Assembly: GCA_040388415.1 (NCBI GenBank)
Contig: JAZKBV010000005.1
Span: forward strand, 3,364 to 67,363
DNA: 64,000 nt
Source: Patescibacteria group bacterium
GTDB taxonomy: Bacteria; Patescibacteriota; Minisyncoccia; Phycocordibacterales; PALSA-1337
Reading direction: 5' to 3'
The translations under genes and the position numbers were made by a program. Of the stretch, positions 21,399 to 38,232 are shown piece by piece. Every line of letters starts with the position of its first letter. Within the stretch, counting starts at the first letter, position 1. The notes under the pieces are model-generated. The model saw only the letters and a list, made by a program, of their open reading frames with translations, was not told the DNA's origin and made no database searches.

Positions 21399-22844
21399 AT
21401 GGATATAAAATTATATAATACACTGACGAAGACGAAAGAAATCTTTAAGCCGCTTAAAAGTGGTGTTGTTGGCATGTACCATTGTGGACCAACGGTCTAT
21501 GACCAGGCGCATATCGGCAATCTCCGTGCATATGTCTTCGCTGACACATTGCGCAGGATGTTCGAATATAATGGCTATGAAGTAAAACAAGTCATCAATA
21601 TCACTGATGTCGGGCATCTTTCTGGTGAAAATGCGGGCAATGCTGATCAGGGTGAAGACAAAATGACGAAGGCACTTATCCGTGAGAATATGCCGCTTTC
21701 ATTGGCGGCGATGCGTGAAGTTGGTACAAAATATTTTGATGCGTTTGTCGAGAATCTCAAAGAACTCCATATCGAGCTTCCGCAGGCCTTTCCACGTGCC
21801 AGCGATACTATCGCTGAAGACGTCGAGCTCATCAAACAGCTTGAGAAAAATGGTTTCGTCTATCAGCTCAACGATGGCGTGTATTTTGACACAGGCAAGT
21901 TTCCTACATATGGAAAATTAGGCGGCATTGACCAGATCGATCTGACAGAAAATGAAGCACATGCGCGTATTACCCAAAATACCGACAAAAAGAATCCTCG
22001 CGACTTTGCTGTATGGAAATTGTCAGCAAAGCAGAATGTTGGCGAAGAAAGCGTTTTGATCGGTTGGGATAGTCCATGGGGCAAAGGCTTCCCTGGCTGG
22101 CATATAGAATGTTCAGCTATGTCGCGCATGATTCTCGGTCAGCCTTTTGATGTTCATACTGGCGGTATTGATCATATCTCTGTCCATCACAACAATGAAA
22201 TTGCTCAGTCTGAAGCTGCATACGGCACCACTCTCGCCAACTACTGGATGCATAATGCGTTCATTACCATAAAAAAAGCAAAAATGGCAAAGTCAGAGGG
22301 TAATTTTCTTACTTTGGATACTCTCGAACTTGAGCATATCTCTCCCCTCGCCTATCGTTATTGGTTGCTCACGGGACACTACCGTTCGACGGTGAACTTC
22401 ACCGGAACTGCCGTTCAGGCGGCTCAAAAAGCCCTTATACGCCTCCTTGCTACAGTGAGCGGTTATCCAGATGGTGGAGCGGTTATACTTGCCTATAAAG
22501 AGCGTTTCTGGGCTTTTATCAATGATGATCTGGATATACCACAGGCAGTCGCTCTCGTCTGGGATCTCATCAAAGATACAAAAGTATCACCTGCAGATAA
22601 ACGCGCTACCATCCTCGATTTTGACCGAGTGCTCGGTCTCAATATCGAATCAGTACCACATATCGCTGCACCTATCGCTGATGCTAAAGATATACCGATT
22701 GAGATCACGGTGCTTGCAGAAGCGCGCGAGGAAGCTCGTAAAGCAAAAGAATGGGCAAAGGCTGATGCGCTCCGCACAGAGATCCAAGATCGTGGTTTTG
22801 ATGTCATCGACAGCGAGAATGGTTTTGTCGTCATCACTCGGTAG
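21399..22844 (+). CDS. cysS: Cysteinyl-tRNA synthetase
   Basis: The N-terminal motif is MYHCGPTVYDQAHIGNLRAYV. KMSKS is KMAKSEGN. The zinc-binding motif is WHIECSAM. Confidence 0.9.
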   Translation: MDIKLYNTLTKTKEIFKPLKSGVVGMYHCGPTVYDQAHIGNLRAYVFADTLRRMFEYNGYEVKQVINITDVGHLSGENAGNADQGEDKMTKALIRENMPLSLAAMREVGTKYFDAFVENLKELHIELPQAFPRASDTIAEDVELIKQLEKNGFVYQLNDGVYFDTGKFPTYGKLGGIDQIDLTENEAHARITQNTDKKNPRDFAVWKLSAKQNVGEESVLIGWDSPWGKGFPGWHIECSAMSRMILGQPFDVHTGGIDHISVHHNNEIAQSEAAYGTTLANYWMHNAFITIKKAKMAKSEGNFLTLDTLELEHISPLAYRYWLLTGHYRSTVNFTGTAVQAAQKALIRLLATVSGYPDGGAVILAYKERFWAFINDDLDIPQAVALVWDLIKDTKVSPADKRATILDFDRVLGLNIESVPHIAAPIADAKDIPIEITVLAEAREEARKAKEWAKADALRTEIQDRGFDVIDSENGFVVITR

Positions 22845-28042: not shown

Positions 28043-30349
28043 CTACATTTTAATCAGATTTAATGCTTGTTGAACATATGTTTTTAACTCAATATCATTA
28101 ATTGGTGCGCTTCTAGAATTAGTATTATCATGATGATATTTTTTTGAATAATTGTTTAATTCTTTTAGTTCTTGTGCATTCGATGTGAATAATGAAAATT
28201 GTGGATCTATGGGTTTCATTTCAATAATTTTGATCATTTCACCCAAATTATTTGCCTTAATTAAACTACTCATAAATTTATAACCTAAATAGCCTTCGAT
28301 TACACTTCTAATTTTTGATGCTATTTGACGTTTTTGATCATCATTTTGAGTGCCATTAGTGAGATAGTTTTCTAAAATGTAAATACTTTTTACAAAATCA
28401 CTAGAAATTTCCTTATCAAAATCACATTCCTGGATGACATTCGTAGAATGTGCCCTAGAAATTGAAAGGGTTTTAACATTTAAATTTAATTTTAAGCGTT
28501 GAACAGCTTTCTTCATGTCGCAAGCAAAAAATGGGTTATGCGTAAGTACGATTAATTGTTTGACCTTGGGAACTAAATCAGACAAATACTCTACTGTTCG
28601 TTGACTACGGCCTTCATCATGACTAGTTAATGGATCATCAAACACGACAATTTTCTTGGACAGGTCTGGGTCAAGCTCTAATCTAGCAAGAAAAAAAGCT
28701 AGAGCTAAGGAATTTTTGTCCCCTTCACTTAGTGCCTGCTCGAAGCAAATATCATGACCGTTGTTTTCAAATTTAACTAGTTCACCATCAAGAAAAAGTT
28801 CATATTCAGCAACTGGATTAATTGAGGCCCCAACATATCTTCCATTTACACTTTGTCCAAGCATAAAGTCAGTTCCAATCTTCTTTAGATAACCATTAAT
28901 TTTAGGTGCATATTGAGCAAGTATTGTAGCAGTATATCCTTCTAATTCTACCTTCTTAGCATCTTTTTCTTCATTTAATTTTTTTGTTGCAATTAAAACA
29001 GCTAATGCAGCGTCGCAAAGTTTAATATGTTCAGTGGTGAAACGACTTTGAATCACTTTTATCTTTTTAATATTTTCAGAAATTAATTTTGGGTCAGATA
29101 TTTTTTTACTTCTAATAGACTCAATTTGAATATTATGCTTTTCTACAACAATATTATACTCACCTACAAATTTATTTAAACCATCAACGATACTTTTCAG
29201 ATTACTTGAACAATCTTGTGTAGTTAATGGTTCACTAATTTTCCTTTTTAGACATGTATTTATCAAATCAAAATCTTTTTGCAAAATAACAAGACTGGAG
29301 ATATCTAATTTTGGTCTAGGCGTAAGCTGTATATACTGGTTCCAAAATCCGTCTAGTTCCAGGTTAATTGCATCACTTCTTTCCCAACCACTTTGAATTT
29401 TTTCAACAGAAAAATTACCTGCAACTGAAGCTACTTCTCTAATTTTTGAAATTAACTCTTCGTATTCTTTATTAAAATATTGTCTATAAGACTCAAGCAC
29501 ATCGCCGGCGTTTTTTAAATCTTGCATACAAAAGGGACAGTTGTTGTCAGTAATATTTTGTAGACCAAATTTTAACCATTCCTCCACTTCACCAGTGTTT
29601 GAAAATTTTGATTTGTGTTCATCAACCAAATCTAAAAATTGCTTCTGAATTGAGGTAATAGTTGTACTACAAATATTTTTAACGTCTTCGAGTGCAGGAA
29701 TATACTTAATTTCCTCAAATCTTAAGTATTTTTGTTTTGAATGAATTAAATTACTTGCAGCAGAAGTCCTAAATTCATTTTCCGCGCTACTTAACTGAGA
29801 ATCAATTGTTAGATCTGGTTTTAAGTTTAAAAAGTCTCTAAAAGAGATCAATCCTCCTGTAATGCGCTCAATATCCTTCTCAAAGCCACGATTTTGTTGC
29901 ATTAGTTCGCTAATGTCCCTTTTGCATCTTTCAATTTCTGATGTTAATACAACCCCTCTCGCACCGACAATAAATCTATGGAGTTGTTGCTTATGGTCTG
30001 GAGTAATATCAAGTCCAGAATAGATGTTCTCATTTACAAAGAAAGTATCGAATATTTCTATGTCAGAATAAGGTGCTGTCCAGCCTGTCGCAGTGTAACT
30101 AAATGTAACACCTTCGCCTTCAAACAATACTTCTTGGCCAGTGTTACTACCAATACTTTTCCTTTGTTGAATTATGCCTGGGTTATTATCACGCAGTGAA
30201 CGCAAAACAGATGTCAAAGTTGTTTTTCCTTTTCCATTTTCTGCGTATAAAAGCACAACTTTCTCCAATAATCCATTCCAGCCATTTTTTACGGAATCAA
30301 AATCATTAAATCTACCGACGCCACATATTTTGAGAATTTTCTTAATCAT
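28043..30349 (-). CDS. RloC/PrrC-like protein: a Rad50-like ABC ATPase with a coiled-coil insertion and CxxC zinc hook, fused to a C-terminal HEPN-type anticodon-nuclease-like domain
   Basis: Walker A is [12 protein letters not shown]. The CxxC zinc hook is [10 protein letters not shown], about 230 aa into a heptad-rich insert. The ABC signature is [19 protein letters not shown], Walker B/D-loop is [14 protein letters not shown] and the H-loop is LIVLTHN. The C-terminal R-x3-E...H motif reads KIRSVIEG...[10 protein letters not shown] is very low, about 30%. The start codon overlaps the stop of the upstream gene by 1 nt. Confidence 0.65.
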
Positions 30350-30981
30350 TATCGTTCGTTTGAGATAAATATTTCCTTTCCAAGATTATTTGAATCGTAG
30401 CTATGTGAGACTGGAACGTGCAAAATACGCAACCCAACACCTTTCATTATCTCATTTACAATTTGATCCCTTTTTATTCTATCCCACCTTGAGTGTGAAC
30501 GATCGTCTAATTCGATGGCCAAATATGGTTTGTATGCTTTGTCGTATAAAACAAAGTCGATCGATTTAGCTTTAATCAGGTTAAAATCGCGATAATTTGT
30601 CCAATGCTCATTTGAATCAATTGGTTTAACTATTCCAGATAGTGGAACCTGTGACTCAATGTGATAAGTATTACCAACTATGTTCTCTAAAATCTTTAAA
30701 AATTCTTTTTCAGCGTTTGTCACTAAACTTTCTTTTAGAATATAACGTGATTCTGTTGCAACTTCAGTATTTTGTTGTGGGCTAATACTGCTAGTTGGGG
30801 TTATGGTTGTTGCCCGACTTAACTTAAGGTTCGGTCGAGTATTATTTCTATTTTTAAACAATTTCCAGCAATATCTAAAAAAAGAAATTAATATAGTAAA
30901 TATAAGACTGATTAGCGCATCGAAAAAGATATCAAGCGGACCGGCGTTCTTGCCTCTATAATATTTGTAATTTCTCGTCAT
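30349..30981 (-). CDS. Membrane-anchored DUF2726-like protein with a restriction-endonuclease-like fold
   Basis: The N-terminal TM helix is LDIFFDALISLIFTILISFF. The C-terminal block is SIDFVLYDKAYKPYLAIELDDRSHSRWDRIKRDQIVNEIMKGVGLRILHV, which follows the D...E-x-D/H pattern of DUF2726/NERD-type nucleases. Low GC. Confidence 0.55.
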   Translation of the reverse strand: MTRNYKYYRGKNAGPLDIFFDALISLIFTILISFFRYCWKLFKNRNNTRPNLKLSRATTITPTSSISPQQNTEVATESRYILKESLVTNAEKEFLKILENIVGNTYHIESQVPLSGIVKPIDSNEHWTNYRDFNLIKAKSIDFVLYDKAYKPYLAIELDDRSHSRWDRIKRDQIVNEIMKGVGLRILHVPVSHSYDSNNLGKEIFISNER

Positions 30982-31008
30982 TTTTTGATAAATTATAGCA
31001 CCGTACCT

Positions 31009-31929
31009 TTATTTTTTCTTAATTCTAGCAGCAATGGCATTTATAAGTATCTCCTTGAGTTCTTTCTTGGTCGAATATTTATAACACTGATAGTGTCTAA
31101 CGTAAAATTCTGGGGGAAGCTCATCTTTACAGACATAGATTGTTTCAATATTTAAGCCAAACGCAAAACCAGCCTCAAAAAATACACTGCTTCTTGTTCC
31201 TGTAAGATCAACAACCACAAAACGACTTTTTCTTATTTCACCTAAAGCCTTATCCATAATTTTTTCAGGGAAAAGACTATCTTTAATACAGACTGGCATA
31301 TATCCTGCCTCAGTAATTGCTTCTTCCATTGCTGTAATGCTTTCATTCATTGATTCATCAAACCACGCAGCAATAAAACCCTGTTCTGATTCAGAATTTT
31401 CCTTTCCTAACTTATTTCCAAGCTCCCATCCATTGGCAGTTAACGTAATTTTGTAGGCGTATAGTCCATCTGTATTGCTCAGAGGTGCCCAGTGAGCTAG
31501 ATTTTTTTGTTCGAGCATTTTAATCAGAGCCTCAAACTCTTTAGGGTTTTTTGCATAAGCTAAAGGGTAATCATTTTTGCAGTTTACTTCGGTTGATTGA
31601 CCAAAATATTCAATTTTAGCTTTTAATCTCTGCAATAACTTATTTGCTTTTTCGGCGATATCATTTGATTTTGGTACTGGATAGCTATTTTTAAGTGTTT
31701 CAATATTTGTTGTTAAAAACTCTGGAATTTGGCGTTGCTCGTTCAACTCACGAACTAAACCAGATAAAAGATATGCATCATTAGATTCAGGTGTATATCT
31801 TAAACATTCATCGCTAATTTTATATTCACCACAACGAGGACAAATTATTCTGTAAAGATCCCGACTGCTTATGGGGTATATTCCCACATCTTCACCACTT
31901 TTATGACACAAAAAACATTTGGTTGGCAT
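31009..31929 (-). CDS. Zinc-ribbon protein with a C-terminal TIR-like/nucleoside 2-deoxyribosyltransferase-like (flavodoxin-fold) domain
   Basis: The N-terminal CxxC...CxxC is CFLCHK...ICPRCGEY. The C-terminal strand/helix pattern FIAAWFDES...MPVCIKD...FVVVDLTGTRSSVFFEAGFAFGLNIETIYV has a conserved Glu at the position of the TIR/NDT catalytic glutamate. Low GC. The start codon lies 1 nt after the uvrB stop. Confidence 0.45.
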   Translation of the reverse strand: MPTKCFLCHKSGEDVGIYPISSRDLYRIICPRCGEYKISDECLRYTPESNDAYLLSGLVRELNEQRQIPEFLTTNIETLKNSYPVPKSNDIAEKANKLLQRLKAKIEYFGQSTEVNCKNDYPLAYAKNPKEFEALIKMLEQKNLAHWAPLSNTDGLYAYKITLTANGWELGNKLGKENSESEQGFIAAWFDESMNESITAMEEAITEAGYMPVCIKDSLFPEKIMDKALGEIRKSRFVVVDLTGTRSSVFFEAGFAFGLNIETIYVCKDELPPEFYVRHYQCYKYSTKKELKEILINAIAARIKKK

Positions 31930-31930
31930 A

Positions 31931-34030
31931 TTATTTTCTTTTTATCTTTCCACCCTTCCTCCCCGGCACACCCATCTTCTCCTCCAACTTAAAGAGCTCA
32001 TCACGTATGAGTGCCGCGGTCTCAAAGTCGAGTGCTTGGACGGCTTCAGCCATAGCTTCCTCCTTCATGCGGTAGAGCTTCTTTGGATCAGTCTTGGCGA
32101 GCTCCTCATCAATCTTGATGAGCTCGTTGACGGCCTTGTCGTGATCACTCTTCAACTGGTCGGTGATGTCGTGAATAGCCTTGATGATGGTCTTTGGCGT
32201 GATGCCATGCTTGGTATTGTAGGCCACCTGGATAGCACGACGACGATCGGTTTCGCGGATGGCATTCTTCATGGAGTCGGTCATATTGTCGGCATAGAGG
32301 ATGACACGCCCCGCAGAGTTACGTGCGGCACGACCGATGGTCTGGATGAGACTGGTCTCTGAGCGGAGGAAGCCTTCTTTGTCGGCATCGAGGATACCGA
32401 TGAGGGTCACTTCGGGCAGGTCGAGACCTTCACGGAGGAGGTTGACGCCCACGACGATATCGTACTTCCCTCTGCGGAAGTCGGTCAGGATGGTGATGCG
32501 CTCGATGGTCTTGATATCGCTGTGGAGATAAGCGGCTTTGATTTTTTTCTCTTTCAGGAACTCTGATAGATCCTCAGCCATCTTCTTGGTCAAGGTCGTC
32601 GCAATGACACGCTCATTTTTGGCTATCACACGCTCAGCCTCTTCGATGAAGTCAAAAATCTGACCCTTGTATCCTTTCTCGGTATTTTCGCGAATCGGTT
32701 TGATGTTCACCACAGGATCGATGAGACCGGTCGGACGGATGACTTGCTCAACGACATTTTGTGATTCAGCTACTTCATACTTACCTGGTGTGGCTGAGGT
32801 ATAGACCATCGGACCGACACGTTCGAGGAACTCCGGGAATTTGAGCGGTCTATTGTCCTTGGCAGACGGCAAACGGAAACCGTGCTCGATCAGAGTCTCT
32901 TTGCGTGAGGCATCGCCGGCATACATGCCATTCAACTGTGGGATCGTGACGTGCGACTCATCGATGATAGTCAGGAAATCAGGATTGCCCTCTTTGTCTT
33001 TGGGAAAATATGCGAGCAGAGTATCAGGCGCTTCACCGGGCATCTTGCCACTGAAGTGACGTGAATAGTTCTCGATGCCGTTGGTATAGCCGATCTCTTT
33101 GATCATGGAAAGGTCATACTTGACGCGACGCTTCAGACGCTCTGCTTCCAGCATCTTTCCTCCCTTTTCAAGTGCTTTCAGTCTATCGACAAGCTCGGCT
33201 TGGATGGTCTTGTACGCTTTAGCACTCTGTTCATCAGAAGAGATGAAGTGCTTTGCCGGGAAAATAAAGATCGCTTCATGTGATGCGCGCACCGAACGAC
33301 TGACGGGATCGAGTTCGGTGATGAGCGAGATGATCGCCTCACCTTTATTGTTCGTGTCATACTCAATGCGATAGATCGTCTTTTCATTGACCGGCATGAC
33401 TTCGAGCATATTGCCGATGGCGCGGAAATTGCCGCTCTTGAGGTCAGCAGTCGTACGTTCAAAATGAATGTCGATCAATTTGCGAATGAGCTCAGCACGC
33501 GATAGTTCCATACCGACTTTGAGTTTGAGATTAACCTTTTCATATTCTTCCGGACTACCCAAACCGTAAATACACGAAACTGATGCCACGATGATGACAT
33601 CTTTGCGTGTGAGGAGCGCCTGAGTGGATGCGTGACGGAGACGTTCGATCTCTTCATTGATCATGGCTTCCTTTTCGATATAGGTATCTGATGAAGGGAT
33701 ATATGCCTCTGGCTGATAGTAGTCATAGTACGAAACGAAATAGTGCACGGCATTATGCGGGAAAAATTCGCGATACTCCTGTGCGAGCTGTGCGGCCAGG
33801 GTTTTATTATGAGCGATAACAAGAGTTGGCTTGTTGAACTGGGTGATGACATTGGCCGCCGTAAAGGTCTTGCCTGAGCCAGTGACACCGAGGAGGGTTT
33901 GCTTGGTAAAACCTTTCTGGAGGCCTTCCACAAGCCCAGAAATAGCCTTTGGTTGGTCACCTGCAGGTTTGTAGGGCGTCGCGAGTTGGAAGAGAGGTTT
34001 AGCTGACATGGGGGTAAATAGTAGGCCCAT
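31931..34030 (-). CDS. uvrB: Excinuclease ABC subunit B
   Basis: The N-terminal motif is QLATPYKPAGDQPKAISGLVEGL. The Walker A motif is LLGVTGSGKTFT. The C-terminal UVR motif is EAVQALDFETAALIRDEL. The true start may be the internal Met at about 34009. Confidence 0.9.
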   Translation of the reverse strand: MGLLFTPMSAKPLFQLATPYKPAGDQPKAISGLVEGLQKGFTKQTLLGVTGSGKTFTAANVITQFNKPTLVIAHNKTLAAQLAQEYREFFPHNAVHYFVSYYDYYQPEAYIPSSDTYIEKEAMINEEIERLRHASTQALLTRKDVIIVASVSCIYGLGSPEEYEKVNLKLKVGMELSRAELIRKLIDIHFERTTADLKSGNFRAIGNMLEVMPVNEKTIYRIEYDTNNKGEAIISLITELDPVSRSVRASHEAIFIFPAKHFISSDEQSAKAYKTIQAELVDRLKALEKGGKMLEAERLKRRVKYDLSMIKEIGYTNGIENYSRHFSGKMPGEAPDTLLAYFPKDKEGNPDFLTIIDESHVTIPQLNGMYAGDASRKETLIEHGFRLPSAKDNRPLKFPEFLERVGPMVYTSATPGKYEVAESQNVVEQVIRPTGLIDPVVNIKPIRENTEKGYKGQIFDFIEEAERVIAKNERVIATTLTKKMAEDLSEFLKEKKIKAAYLHSDIKTIERITILTDFRRGKYDIVVGVNLLREGLDLPEVTLIGILDADKEGFLRSETSLIQTIGRAARNSAGRVILYADNMTDSMKNAIRETDRRRAIQVAYNTKHGITPKTIIKAIHDITDQLKSDHDKAVNELIKIDEELAKTDPKKLYRMKEEAMAEAVQALDFETAALIRDELFKLEEKMGVPGRKGGKIKRK

Positions 34031-34126
34031 AATACGATAAAAATAGAGATTTGGCTAATAAAAAAAGACTGAAGTATTACTACCTCAGTCTCGAGATTGC
34101 TTATAGACAGAAACACTCGTGAATTA

Positions 34127-36594: not shown

Positions 36595-37608
36595 CTATTT
36601 TCTAAGGAGTACCTTCAATACCGCAGTGTGTATATCCTTCTCATCCATGTCGTAGTGAGCTATGAGCTCATCTGGCGTACCTGATTGACCGAACAGATCT
36701 TTTACTCCCACAAACTCAATAGGCACCGGGAAATGCTTTGCGAGACACTCTGCTACTGCTGAACCCATACCTCCAGCGATCTGATGTTCTTCGACAGTGA
36801 CGATAGCGTGGGCATCATGAGCGATACGGATGATCGCATCTTCATCAAGGGGCTTGATGGTTGAAAGGTTGACCACTGCCACGTTCTTCCCTTCTTGATT
36901 GAGCTTGCGAGCGACTTTGAGCGCTCTATAGAGGAGTGCGCCTGTAGCGATGATGCCGACATCCAGATCTCTCTTATGGGAATCGCCTGAAACACGCGAA
37001 TCAAATACAACTTGTGCCTTCCCTATCTCAAACGGTGTCTCATCGGTTGTAATGACAGGTGTTTTTTCGCGAGCCAGACGGATATAGGTTGGTGAATCAG
37101 TTTTGCTTGCAGCGATAGTTGCCTTGCGTGCTTCGATAGAATCACATGGTGAAATGACGACCATACGAGGGATGACGCGGGTGATAGCGATGTCTTCGAT
37201 AGCTTGGTGCGTGCCACCGTCAGGGCCGACCGATATGCCCGCATGCGAGCCAGCGATCTTTACGGGTCGGTTGTTGTAGGCGATCGTGGTGCGAATCTGT
37301 TCCCAGTTTCTGCCAGGACTGAACATGGCGTATGAAGTAATGAATGGAATCTTGCCCATAGCAGCCATACCTGATGCCAGTGCAGCGAGGTTCTGTTCAG
37401 CGATGCCCATCTCCACGAATCGTTCAGGAAATTTCTGTTTGAAAGCGAGCATGTGGGTCGACTCAGTCAGGTCAGCACAAAGACCGACGATACGTTTGTC
37501 TGCTTCAGCGGCTTGGAGGAGGCCTTCACCAAAGCCCTTGCGTATAGGAACTTGCTCGACGTCCTTGTCGAAGAGGTGCGGGTTGAGTTTTTGGTGGGGG
37601 TTGAGCAT
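36595..37608 (-). CDS. Transketolase C-terminal subunit (pyrimidine-binding plus C-terminal domains)
   Basis: The motifs are GIAEQNLAALASGMAAMGKIPF, GSHAGISVGPDGGTHQAIEDIA and a C-terminal TKC domain. The 337-aa size is typical of split TktB. Confidence 0.85.
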   Translation of the reverse strand: MLNPHQKLNPHLFDKDVEQVPIRKGFGEGLLQAAEADKRIVGLCADLTESTHMLAFKQKFPERFVEMGIAEQNLAALASGMAAMGKIPFITSYAMFSPGRNWEQIRTTIAYNNRPVKIAGSHAGISVGPDGGTHQAIEDIAITRVIPRMVVISPCDSIEARKATIAASKTDSPTYIRLAREKTPVITTDETPFEIGKAQVVFDSRVSGDSHKRDLDVGIIATGALLYRALKVARKLNQEGKNVAVVNLSTIKPLDEDAIIRIAHDAHAIVTVEEHQIAGGMGSAVAECLAKHFPVPIEFVGVKDLFGQSGTPDELIAHYDMDEKDIHTAVLKVLLRK

Positions 37609-37613
37609 TTAGA

Positions 37614-37961
37614 TTATTTCATTTTATTTCGATTTTTGATTTTACCGTAAAGCCAGCCAATCAGTGCTCCTATTATGAACCAGTAAATACTAAAATTAAT
37701 TAGTAAACCATAGATAATCGGAAGATGCGTTAGAGGATAAAGATTAATTCCTACCAAGTAAAGTGGATAAAGTATAGCTGTAGTTATACATAAACCAAAT
37801 ATTTGTCCGATAATTACATTAGGAAAAAAAAGTCCTATTAGGTCACTATTGTCATGTGGATGTAAAACACCTGGAATACTGATTAAAATCAGAGATAATA
37901 TGATGTTAAATATTGCACATATAATTCCAAATTTTAACCAGTATCGTTTATTTGTTTGCAT
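37614..37961 (-). CDS. Small membrane protein, paralog of 38239..38478
   Basis: A 115-aa ORF with three or four TM helices. The C-terminus is IGALIGWLYGKIKNRNKMK. The DNA motif ccgtaaagccagccaat is shared with 38239..38478. Confidence 0.5.
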   Translation of the reverse strand: MQTNKRYWLKFGIICAIFNIILSLILISIPGVLHPHDNSDLIGLFFPNVIIGQIFGLCITTAILYPLYLVGINLYPLTHLPIIYGLLINFSIYWFIIGALIGWLYGKIKNRNKMK

Positions 37962-37980
37962 TAAAATAGTATTAATTAAT

Positions 37981-38232
37981 TTACAATCCCAAACTACTTA
38001 CGATCGCCGCGAAGAGTATCAGTACCCCACCCTCGATTTTACGAATACTTAAATCTCTTTTCGTCTGCTTGAAGTGATAGCTGGCATCATGGTTGAGCAT
38101 GAGCACTACGCCAAGGACGATACTGACGAGGAGGAACAGGTTAAATAAAGACGAAAATATTGATTGTGTACTGACGAAGTAGATTGCAAGTCCAAGGAAA
38201 AGGAGTTTTAGGATGATTTCGATGATTCTCAT
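37981..38232 (-). CDS. Small membrane protein
   Basis: An 83-aa ORF with two TM helices. Confidence 0.4.
   Translation of the reverse strand: MRIIEIILKLLFLGLAIYFVSTQSIFSSLFNLFLLVSIVLGVVLMLNHDASYHFKQTKRDLSIRKIEGGVLILFAAIVSSLGL

Follow-up and report, generated by a model that had tools for sequence, protein, structure and literature searches.

The gene at positions 31009–31929 (minus strand) of the 64,000-nucleotide stretch of contig JAZKBV010000005.1 analysed here (hereafter the window), from a Patescibacteria group bacterium, raises two linked questions: what is the role of a 306-amino-acid protein that joins a zinc ribbon to a domain resembling nucleoside 2-deoxyribosyltransferases (NDT) and TIR enzymes, and does its start codon, lying immediately beyond the stop codon of uvrB, tie that role to the DNA-damage response? 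Our answer to the first question, to which we assign a probability of roughly 60%, is that this gene, here called ZnR-NDT, encodes a self-contained, horizontally mobile anti-phage protein of the abortive-infection type. As to the second, the place of the gene after uvrB looks like an accident of the insertion of a three-gene island and not like regulatory design. The most informative result is the modularity of the protein, its N-terminal part being found elsewhere in front of several other effector domains.

The open reading frame, taken from a list of open reading frames and from the sequence itself, is a real and conserved gene. A protein search returned 162 homologues; the sequence is 100% identical to P0001, a 'hypothetical protein' of a Patescibacteria group bacterium metagenome-assembled genome. 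A scan of one genome per species yielded at least 484 loci. The sequence features listed in the preliminary description are all there, with a conservation well above what chance would give. Direct comparison of the full-length protein with PDB sequences gave nothing meaningful (best E = 1). An AlphaFold2 model of the whole protein was built on an alignment of 45 full-length relatives, which also underlies the conservation figures given below; it had a mean predicted local distance difference test score (pLDDT) of 88.8 and a predicted template modelling score (pTM) of 0.66, and displayed four parts, i.e. a three-stranded zinc ribbon, a helical linker, a winged helix and a five-stranded alpha/beta domain of the NDT/TIR-like kind.

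The alpha/beta domain (residues 179–306; 31012–31395, minus strand), a putative N-glycosidase effector, was assigned to the NDT/DNPH1/TIR group by Foldseek, Pfam, PADLOC and a profile match to PDB sequences. Beta–alpha alternation spans residues 183–302 of the model, with five strands (183–187, 211–214, 237–241, 262–268 and 282–285) and helices between them, which is the flavodoxin-like five-strand fold of the NDT/DNPH1 superfamily and confirms what a preliminary description of the locus, made from the sequence alone, had read from the alternation of strands and helices. The structure search which that description had proposed as a check likewise placed the domain in the NDT/DNPH1/TIR fold: Foldseek matched it to a nucleoside 2'-deoxyribosyltransferase, human and rat DNPH1/Rcl, the CMP N-glycosidase BcmB, the SARM1 TIR domain and the SPARTA TIR domain (all at E values of 3e-4 to 1e-2), with target-normalised TM scores of 0.5–0.76 for the NDT (8qc0), DNPH1 (8rpt) and BcmB (4jen).

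Invariant residues of the domain were F185, A187, D226, S235, D241, T243, E252 and G254. E252, kept in 45 of 45 sequences and encoded by the GAG codon at 31174–31176 (minus strand), lies in the helix after the third strand of the model. In NDT and DNPH1 enzymes the catalytic Glu nucleophile opens the helix after strand 3 (E98 in the L. leichmannii NDT and the Glu of GYELG in DNPH1). Rcl/DNPH1 was also the best PDB sequence match of the C-terminal profile (E 0.0035); the profile segment 'vvvDLTgeresvffEaGfa' pairs with 'VVVAEVTQPSLGVGYELGRA' of Rcl/DNPH1, setting E252 on the catalytic Glu of that enzyme ('GVGYELGRA', 'GYELG') and D241 on the acidic residue that ends its strand 3. The earlier suggestion of an invariant Glu at the catalytic position after the third strand therefore holds, and E252 is the predicted catalytic nucleophile.

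Searches at the family level with Pfam and PADLOC agreed with the structure matches and thereby support both the fold and the catalytic-Glu assignments. The Pfam model Nuc_deoxyrib_tr (PF05014, clan Nribosyltransf) matched 37 of the 45 members at E <= 0.05, the strongest match reaching 3.7e-7, and for some relatives a PF05014 match is already precomputed; the PADLOC model PDLC00733 ('Effector/TIR') matched 43 of the 45, as well as the window protein itself (E 7.6e-9). Neither the window protein nor any of its 45 relatives matched the Pfam models TIR, TIR_2 or CAP12-PCTIR_TIR (clan STIR) at E <= 0.05, the sole match from the Pfam TIR clan being DUF4062 in a single member (E 0.019). An hhalign comparison of the C-terminal profile with the TIR_2 domain of a sister protein (P0217) set Glu opposite Glu at a non-significant E of 0.098. 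Whether the domain is labelled NDT-like or TIR-like matters little for its mechanism, because both are Glu-dependent N-glycosidases.

The N-terminal half begins MPTKCFLCHK, with a second cysteine motif, ICPRCGEY, beginning at residue 29. The zinc ribbon that these motifs had suggested (residues 1–40, with C5, C8, C30 and C33; 31810–31929, minus strand) was corroborated by cysteine conservation (C30 and C33 invariant, C5 and C8 kept in at least 90% of the sequences), by three short strands modelled at residues 16–39, and by matches of the Pfam zinc-ribbon model Lar_restr_allev to 12 of the 45 family members. It is followed by a helical linker and a MarR/PadR-like winged-helix domain (residues 41–178; 31396–31809, minus strand), recognised from the AlphaFold2 model and from Foldseek. 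Residues 1–178 modelled alone reached a pLDDT of 93.2, and MarR/PadR winged-helix regulators matched them weakly in Foldseek (E 3e-3 to 7e-2). We take the zinc ribbon and winged helix together to be a putative sensor/regulatory module; no model covering it was found in Pfam, NCBIfam or PADLOC 2.0, nor any description of it in those databases or in the literature searched.

At E <= 1e-3, a profile of this 178-residue module matched 4255 cluster representatives (clustering at 50% identity), of which 1887 remained at the stricter E <= 1e-10. Fusion partners were read from matches of unusual length. The module precedes a TIR_2 or ThsB-like TIR domain in P0208, P0217, P0235 and P0182; a Hypoth_Ymh HEPN domain, matching the Aga_HEPN (Argonaute-associated HEPN) and PD-Lambda-3_B models, in P0124 and P0149; a class III nucleotide cyclase matching the Pycsar PycC models in P0211; and a Pfam cyclase domain, with no PADLOC match, in P0201. 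The NDT-like domain, matched in at least 2425 proteins and also occurring in short forms, is found behind other N-termini as well: in P0110, P0112 and P0114 (about 213 amino acids in length; P0112 comes from another Patescibacteria metagenome-assembled genome) it is 56–63% identical to that of the window protein, and the zinc ribbon and winged helix are replaced by a different N-terminal region of about 90 amino acids that resembles a charged coiled coil. On a gammaproteobacterial chromosome (locus L219, 4487–5423) the NDT-like protein P0440 (140 amino acids) is a separate open reading frame that overlaps the end of a 180-amino-acid one, a pair that looks like a split or frameshifted full-length protein and that adjoins HEPN/MNT-type and YafQ-type toxin–antitoxin genes. 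The occurrence of the same module before NDT, TIR, HEPN and cyclase domains is characteristic of a sensor whose immune effectors can be exchanged. A broader proposal, which we put forward only tentatively, would be that residues 1–178 define a large family of immune sensors, each a single protein, whose effector can be an NDT-like N-glycosidase, a TIR domain, an HEPN RNase or a nucleotide cyclase, and that the NDT branch might use a substrate or trigger new to bacterial immunity; depletion of a nucleotide rather than of NAD+, set off by recognition of phage nucleic acid or protein, would be one possibility.

The genomic loci were distributed over Patescibacteria, Planctomycetota, Chloroflexota, Acidobacteriota, Bacteroidota, Bacillota and several proteobacterial classes, with further loci in Nitrospira, Elusimicrobia, Omnitrophota and one archaeon; the family is widespread, patchy and horizontally mobile. 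Plasmid relatives included 16 Bacillus records, of which the 14 listed were all Bacillus mycoides megaplasmids, on which the gene is annotated as 'nucleoside 2-deoxyribosyltransferase' and adjoins an integrase remnant; a relative on a Hydrogenimonas plasmid adjoins genes for an ATPase and an HNH endonuclease. Among viral sequences, phrog_16139 of PHROGs matched at E 3.6e-30 and relatives were present on 45 viral contigs of IMG/VR, while a tblastn search of GenBank phage genomes gave no match.

The neighbourhoods were varied. A conserved partner gene was sought by all-against-all clustering of the open reading frames of 80 loci and rejected, no candidate occurring in more than five loci; the clusters that did recur resembled components of type I restriction-modification systems and integrases. 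The Pfam families most common among 129 adjacent genes were Methylase_S, N6_N4_Mtase and SMC_N, together with TPR repeat models (three genes each), followed by N6_Mtase, ResIII, SWI2_SNF2, AAA_21, Schlafen/AlbA_2 and PIN, and no Pfam family was found in more than four of the 129. Individual loci fit the same picture. The gene for P0041 (53% identical; locus L084, 5225–8960) starts 1 nucleotide after the stop codon of a 924-amino-acid type IIG restriction-modification gene and is followed by genes for an unannotated 764-amino-acid protein, with no PADLOC match and no similarity to the AAA_13 protein of the window described below, for a 266-amino-acid protein and for a DUF4238 defence protein. 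P0025 is encoded near a type III restriction-modification system, and P0002 within a block of hypothetical genes ending in a serine recombinase. In raw counts, the family is thus located as genes of defence islands and mobile elements are, on a low-GC island in the window, beside restriction-modification genes, on plasmids and on viral contigs. Its patchy spread and varied neighbourhoods point to a unit that is mobile, stands alone and is prone to settle among defence and toxin–antitoxin genes.

These results lend support to the idea of a defence module, already raised in the preliminary description, and from them we infer trigger, mode of activation, substrate and phenotype as follows. Sensing of an infection cue, either a phage protein or a nucleic acid, would fall to the zinc ribbon and winged helix. 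As effector, the NDT/TIR-like domain would be a Glu-dependent N-glycosidase that is switched on after sensing, probably by oligomerisation by analogy with TIR and NDT enzymes. Once active it would split NAD(P)+ or a nucleotide at the base–ribose bond, and the resulting depletion of an essential metabolite would block phage replication.

Several points weigh against an anti-phage role. By raw count, only a minority of the 80 genomic loci had neighbours of a defence type. The window protein scores 21.6 bits with Nuc_deoxyrib_tr, below the 28.8-bit gathering cut-off of Pfam, and its matches to solved structures are all weak (E no better than 3e-4 in Foldseek and no better than 0.0035 by sequence). 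The zinc ribbon and winged helix could equally serve as a DNA-binding regulator. Finally, defence is deduced from context and architecture.

Both the architectural kind and immune effectors of the NDT/TIR fold are already known, and in the literature searched we found neither a prior description nor an experimental test of the ZnR-NDT family. The NDT-like N-glycosidase of Retron-Eco1 (Ec86) is reported to hydrolyse NAD(P)+ (PMC12673091) and to work in dimeric or oligomeric form (PMC12673091; bioRxiv 10.1101/2023.08.16.553469). ZnR-NDT resembles it in having a putative NDT-fold effector with a predicted catalytic Glu, the anti-phage use of such an effector being known for the retron. The retron effector has a C-terminal lobe and is restrained by a filament of reverse transcriptase and multicopy single-stranded DNA (msDNA), whereas ZnR-NDT lacks a reverse transcriptase and a non-coding RNA and has its NDT-like domain fused to the zinc ribbon and winged helix. 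The Retron-Eco1 structure did not appear in the first 50 Foldseek matches.

Another precedent is Swarozyc, a single protein that combines a TIR-like NADase (DUF4062) with an HTH/winged-helix sensor and has the phage portal as its trigger (bioRxiv 10.64898/2026.05.01.722283). Both are single polypeptides that link an enzyme of the TIR/NDT superfamily to a winged-helix domain, both show patchy spread and location in defence islands, and Swarozyc depends on its catalytic Glu. The domain order is reversed, however, the enzyme being N-terminal in Swarozyc, which also has no zinc ribbon, and among ZnR-NDT members DUF4062 was limited to the single match given above.

The Abi proteins (AbiJ-NTD1-5 and AbiTii) offer a parallel for the modularity, since their non-catalytic N-terminal domain, predicted to sense phage components, is alternately fused to HEPN (including Ymh), TIR or NDT domains, the C-terminal domain being predicted to act as a suicide toxin (PMC3710099). 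ZnR-NDT shares this architecture, in which the toxin or signalling domain behind an N-terminal domain can be exchanged; unlike the 'mostly alpha-helical' Abi N-terminal domains, its module is a zinc ribbon with an alpha/beta winged helix (for AbiJ-NTD1 and AbiJ-NTD2 this comparison was by description only), and the Pfam models AbiJ_NTD3, AbiJ_NTD4, AbiJ_NTD5 and AbiTii matched neither the window protein nor the 45 relatives. Likeness to the TIR effectors of Thoeris, CBASS/Pycsar and short Argonaute systems lies in the PDLC00733 matches, in the structural matches to SARM1 and SPARTA TIR domains, and in the sister proteins whose same N-terminal module carries genuine TIR_2/ThsB-like domains. In contrast to those effectors, the ZnR-NDT protein itself matches none of the Pfam TIR models searched, and neither neighbour clustering nor the census of adjacent genes revealed a ThsA, cyclase or Argonaute partner gene nearby. 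The effector of type VIII Thoeris contains a domain resembling CMP hydrolases (bioRxiv 10.64898/2025.12.03.692087).

If ZnR-NDT is indeed an anti-phage protein, it would add to the single-gene systems a widespread sensor–effector family that extends from Patescibacteria to Planctomycetota, Bacillus megaplasmids and prophages, and it would provide a second context, after Retron-Eco1, in which an NDT-fold N-glycosidase is an immune effector. The exchangeable N-terminal module offers a handle for finding the phage trigger, and the family is open to experiment because some carriers can be cultivated, for example Bacillus mycoides (WP_078178485.1) and Hydrogenimonas (WP_286338084.1).

Two other functions of the protein deserve consideration. 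It could be a housekeeping or regulatory nucleotide salvage enzyme of the NDT/DNPH1 type, useful given the reduced biosynthesis of Patescibacteria, to which the zinc ribbon and winged helix would be appended for DNA binding or regulation. Among families, Nuc_deoxyrib_tr matches best, several sources annotate relatives as nucleoside 2-deoxyribosyltransferase, and the closest solved sequence is DNPH1/Rcl; with DNPH1/Rcl and the NDTs of PF05014 the domain shares the flavodoxin-like fold and an invariant Glu on the catalytic nucleophile, and with DNPH1 also the acidic residue at the end of strand 3, at the same 11-residue spacing from the Glu. However, only about 50 residues align by sequence, in the central beta3–alpha3 region and not in the N-terminal phosphate-binding loop region of DNPH1, and the score of the window protein stays below the Pfam cut-off. 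Salvage enzymes of this type also lack the extra 178-amino-acid module, which ZnR-NDT has in common with proteins bearing TIR, HEPN and cyclase effectors, as well as its defence context and mobile distribution. A spread driven by horizontal transfer that takes in plasmids and phages, a position on a low-GC island and the absence of a conserved metabolic neighbour all argue in the same direction, and we consider a salvage role unlikely.

Similarly improbable, in our view, is a DNA-directed glycosylase, which would bind DNA by its zinc ribbon and winged helix and use the NDT-like domain to strip bases from phage or modified DNA. The N-terminal folds are of a nucleic-acid-binding type, Anantharaman et al. 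2013 (PMC3710099) suggested such an activity where an NDT domain is fused to an Abi N-terminal domain, and possible DNA ADP-ribosylation has been mentioned for Retron-Eco1 (PMC12673091). Yet the characterised enzymes of the NDT/DNPH1/TIR fold recovered here all act on free nucleotides or NAD+, and the module is also fused to cyclases and HEPN RNases, where DNA targeting by the module is not required.

The surroundings of the gene bear on whether the anti-phage protein acts alone. ZnR-NDT is the first of three minus-strand genes on an island of about 3.9 kb (28043–31930, minus strand), which composition profiles marked as the sole strongly low-GC stretch of the window, with a guanine-plus-cytosine (GC) content of 0.31–0.36 against about 0.45–0.52 elsewhere; the flanking uvrB and SPFH genes are at about 0.50. 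GC falls from 0.50 to 0.35 at the uvrB stop codon, whereas at the ten closest metagenomic uvrB loci the 1 kb downstream has nearly the same GC as uvrB. A break this sharp, absent from the related loci, indicates recent insertion, and the gene therefore arrived with the inserted island. The flanks held only short, chance-level repeats when searched for direct repeats or att sites, no integrase marks the island, the window contains no tRNA genes and an Rfam scan of it returned nothing. An empty-site comparison recovered no empty site, because the 80 closest uvrB loci share no more than 66% identity and lack synteny; an SPFH gene was present at one of the 80. A second, short low-GC patch lies at 37600–38000 of the window (GC about 0.28 in a 400-nucleotide window).

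The second gene of the island (30349–30981, minus strand) encodes a protein of the restriction-endonuclease-fold family DUF2726 (Pfam E 3.6e-25), its ATG at 30981 being separated from the ZnR-NDT stop codon by a gap of 27 nucleotides. The third (28043–30349, minus strand), whose ATG overlaps the DUF2726 stop codon, encodes a 768-amino-acid AAA_13 ATPase (Pfam E 2.6e-33; PADLOC PDLC04895, E 2.2e-69) that corresponds over nearly its full length to the PADLOC single-gene phage-defence candidate PDC-S06. The three products might be thought to form one multi-gene defence system, as the genes share a strand, a low GC content and this tight packing. However, tblastn detected relatives of the DUF2726 and AAA_13 genes, and likewise of the SPFH gene, at none of 85 family loci; three loci with AAA_13 homologues have AAA_13 alone, without DUF2726 or ZnR-NDT (two of the three among toxin–antitoxin modules); and the PADLOC candidate that the ATPase matches is a single-gene one. 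The three genes are probably not one system, and judging from these gene contexts we rate that arrangement as quite unlikely.

The same three contexts led us to reject AAA_13 and DUF2726 as obligate partners. Since AAA_13 homologues stand alone elsewhere, the DUF2726/AAA_13 pairing may be specific to this island, where the two genes, with stop and start overlapping, could form a two-gene unit. A perfect TATAAT occurs at 30992–30997 (minus strand), inside the 27-nucleotide gap and about 10 nucleotides upstream of the DUF2726 start; it could be the -10 element of a very short or leaderless DUF2726/AAA_13 transcript, and is missing from the list of a consensus promoter scan because it has no good -35 element. 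The AAA_13 ATPase is sometimes annotated as 'wobble nucleotide-excising tRNase'.

There remains the abutment to uvrB (31931–34030, minus strand; Pfam UvrB, UvrB_inter, Helicase_C, ResIII and UVR), the gene of host composition (GC about 0.50) directly upstream. As read from the sequence, the uvrB TAA occupies 31931–31933 and the ZnR-NDT ATG 31927–31929 on the minus strand, leaving a lone spacer base at 31930, so the 1-nucleotide distance given in the preliminary description was correct. The coupling to the DNA-damage response that it had suggested from this distance is not supported. The SOS regulon or a uvrB operon would call for conserved linkage and a LexA operator; uvrB was found by tblastn within 8–10 kb of none of the 85 family loci, and ZnR-NDT at none of the 80 closest uvrB loci. 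The LexA-type pattern CTGT-N8-ACAG occurs nowhere in the window, and GAAC-N4-GTTC has a single match, at 22405, far from uvrB and with none near it. At other family loci the distance to the upstream same-strand gene ranges from -3 to 826 nucleotides, and a 1-nucleotide gap is not specific to uvrB, because P0041 starts at that same distance from a restriction-modification gene.

Consensus scans showed no minus-strand promoter-like site in the 3' end of uvrB and no terminator-like site from uvrB to the end of the island. With 25 sites against 20.8 +/- 5.0 in shuffled sequence, the promoter scan did no better than chance and is therefore not evidence either way. Read-through from uvrB, and thus co-transcription in this genome, is plausible. 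That ZnR-NDT would be a promoterless defence module deliberately coupled to DNA damage and riding an SOS-inducible uvrB transcript is nevertheless very unlikely, the 1-nucleotide gap and the lack of promoter-like and terminator-like sites being offset by the unique linkage, the GC break at the uvrB stop codon, the absence of a LexA-type box upstream of uvrB, the loose spacing in the family and a promoter scan indistinguishable from shuffles. The unique linkage, GC break, missing LexA box and loose spacing instead lead us to regard the abutment as a by-product of the insertion of the island into a compact genome; in such a genome, tight abutment to a housekeeping gene should not be taken for regulatory coupling unless the linkage is conserved.

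At the upstream edge of uvrB (34007–34092, minus strand) a terminator-like hairpin (34092–34065) is accompanied by a promoter-like site, the -10 element of which overlaps the listed uvrB ATG at 34030. Because of this overlap, and because uvrB homologues align from residue 14 onward only, the true start of uvrB may be the second methionine (M8, at about 34009).

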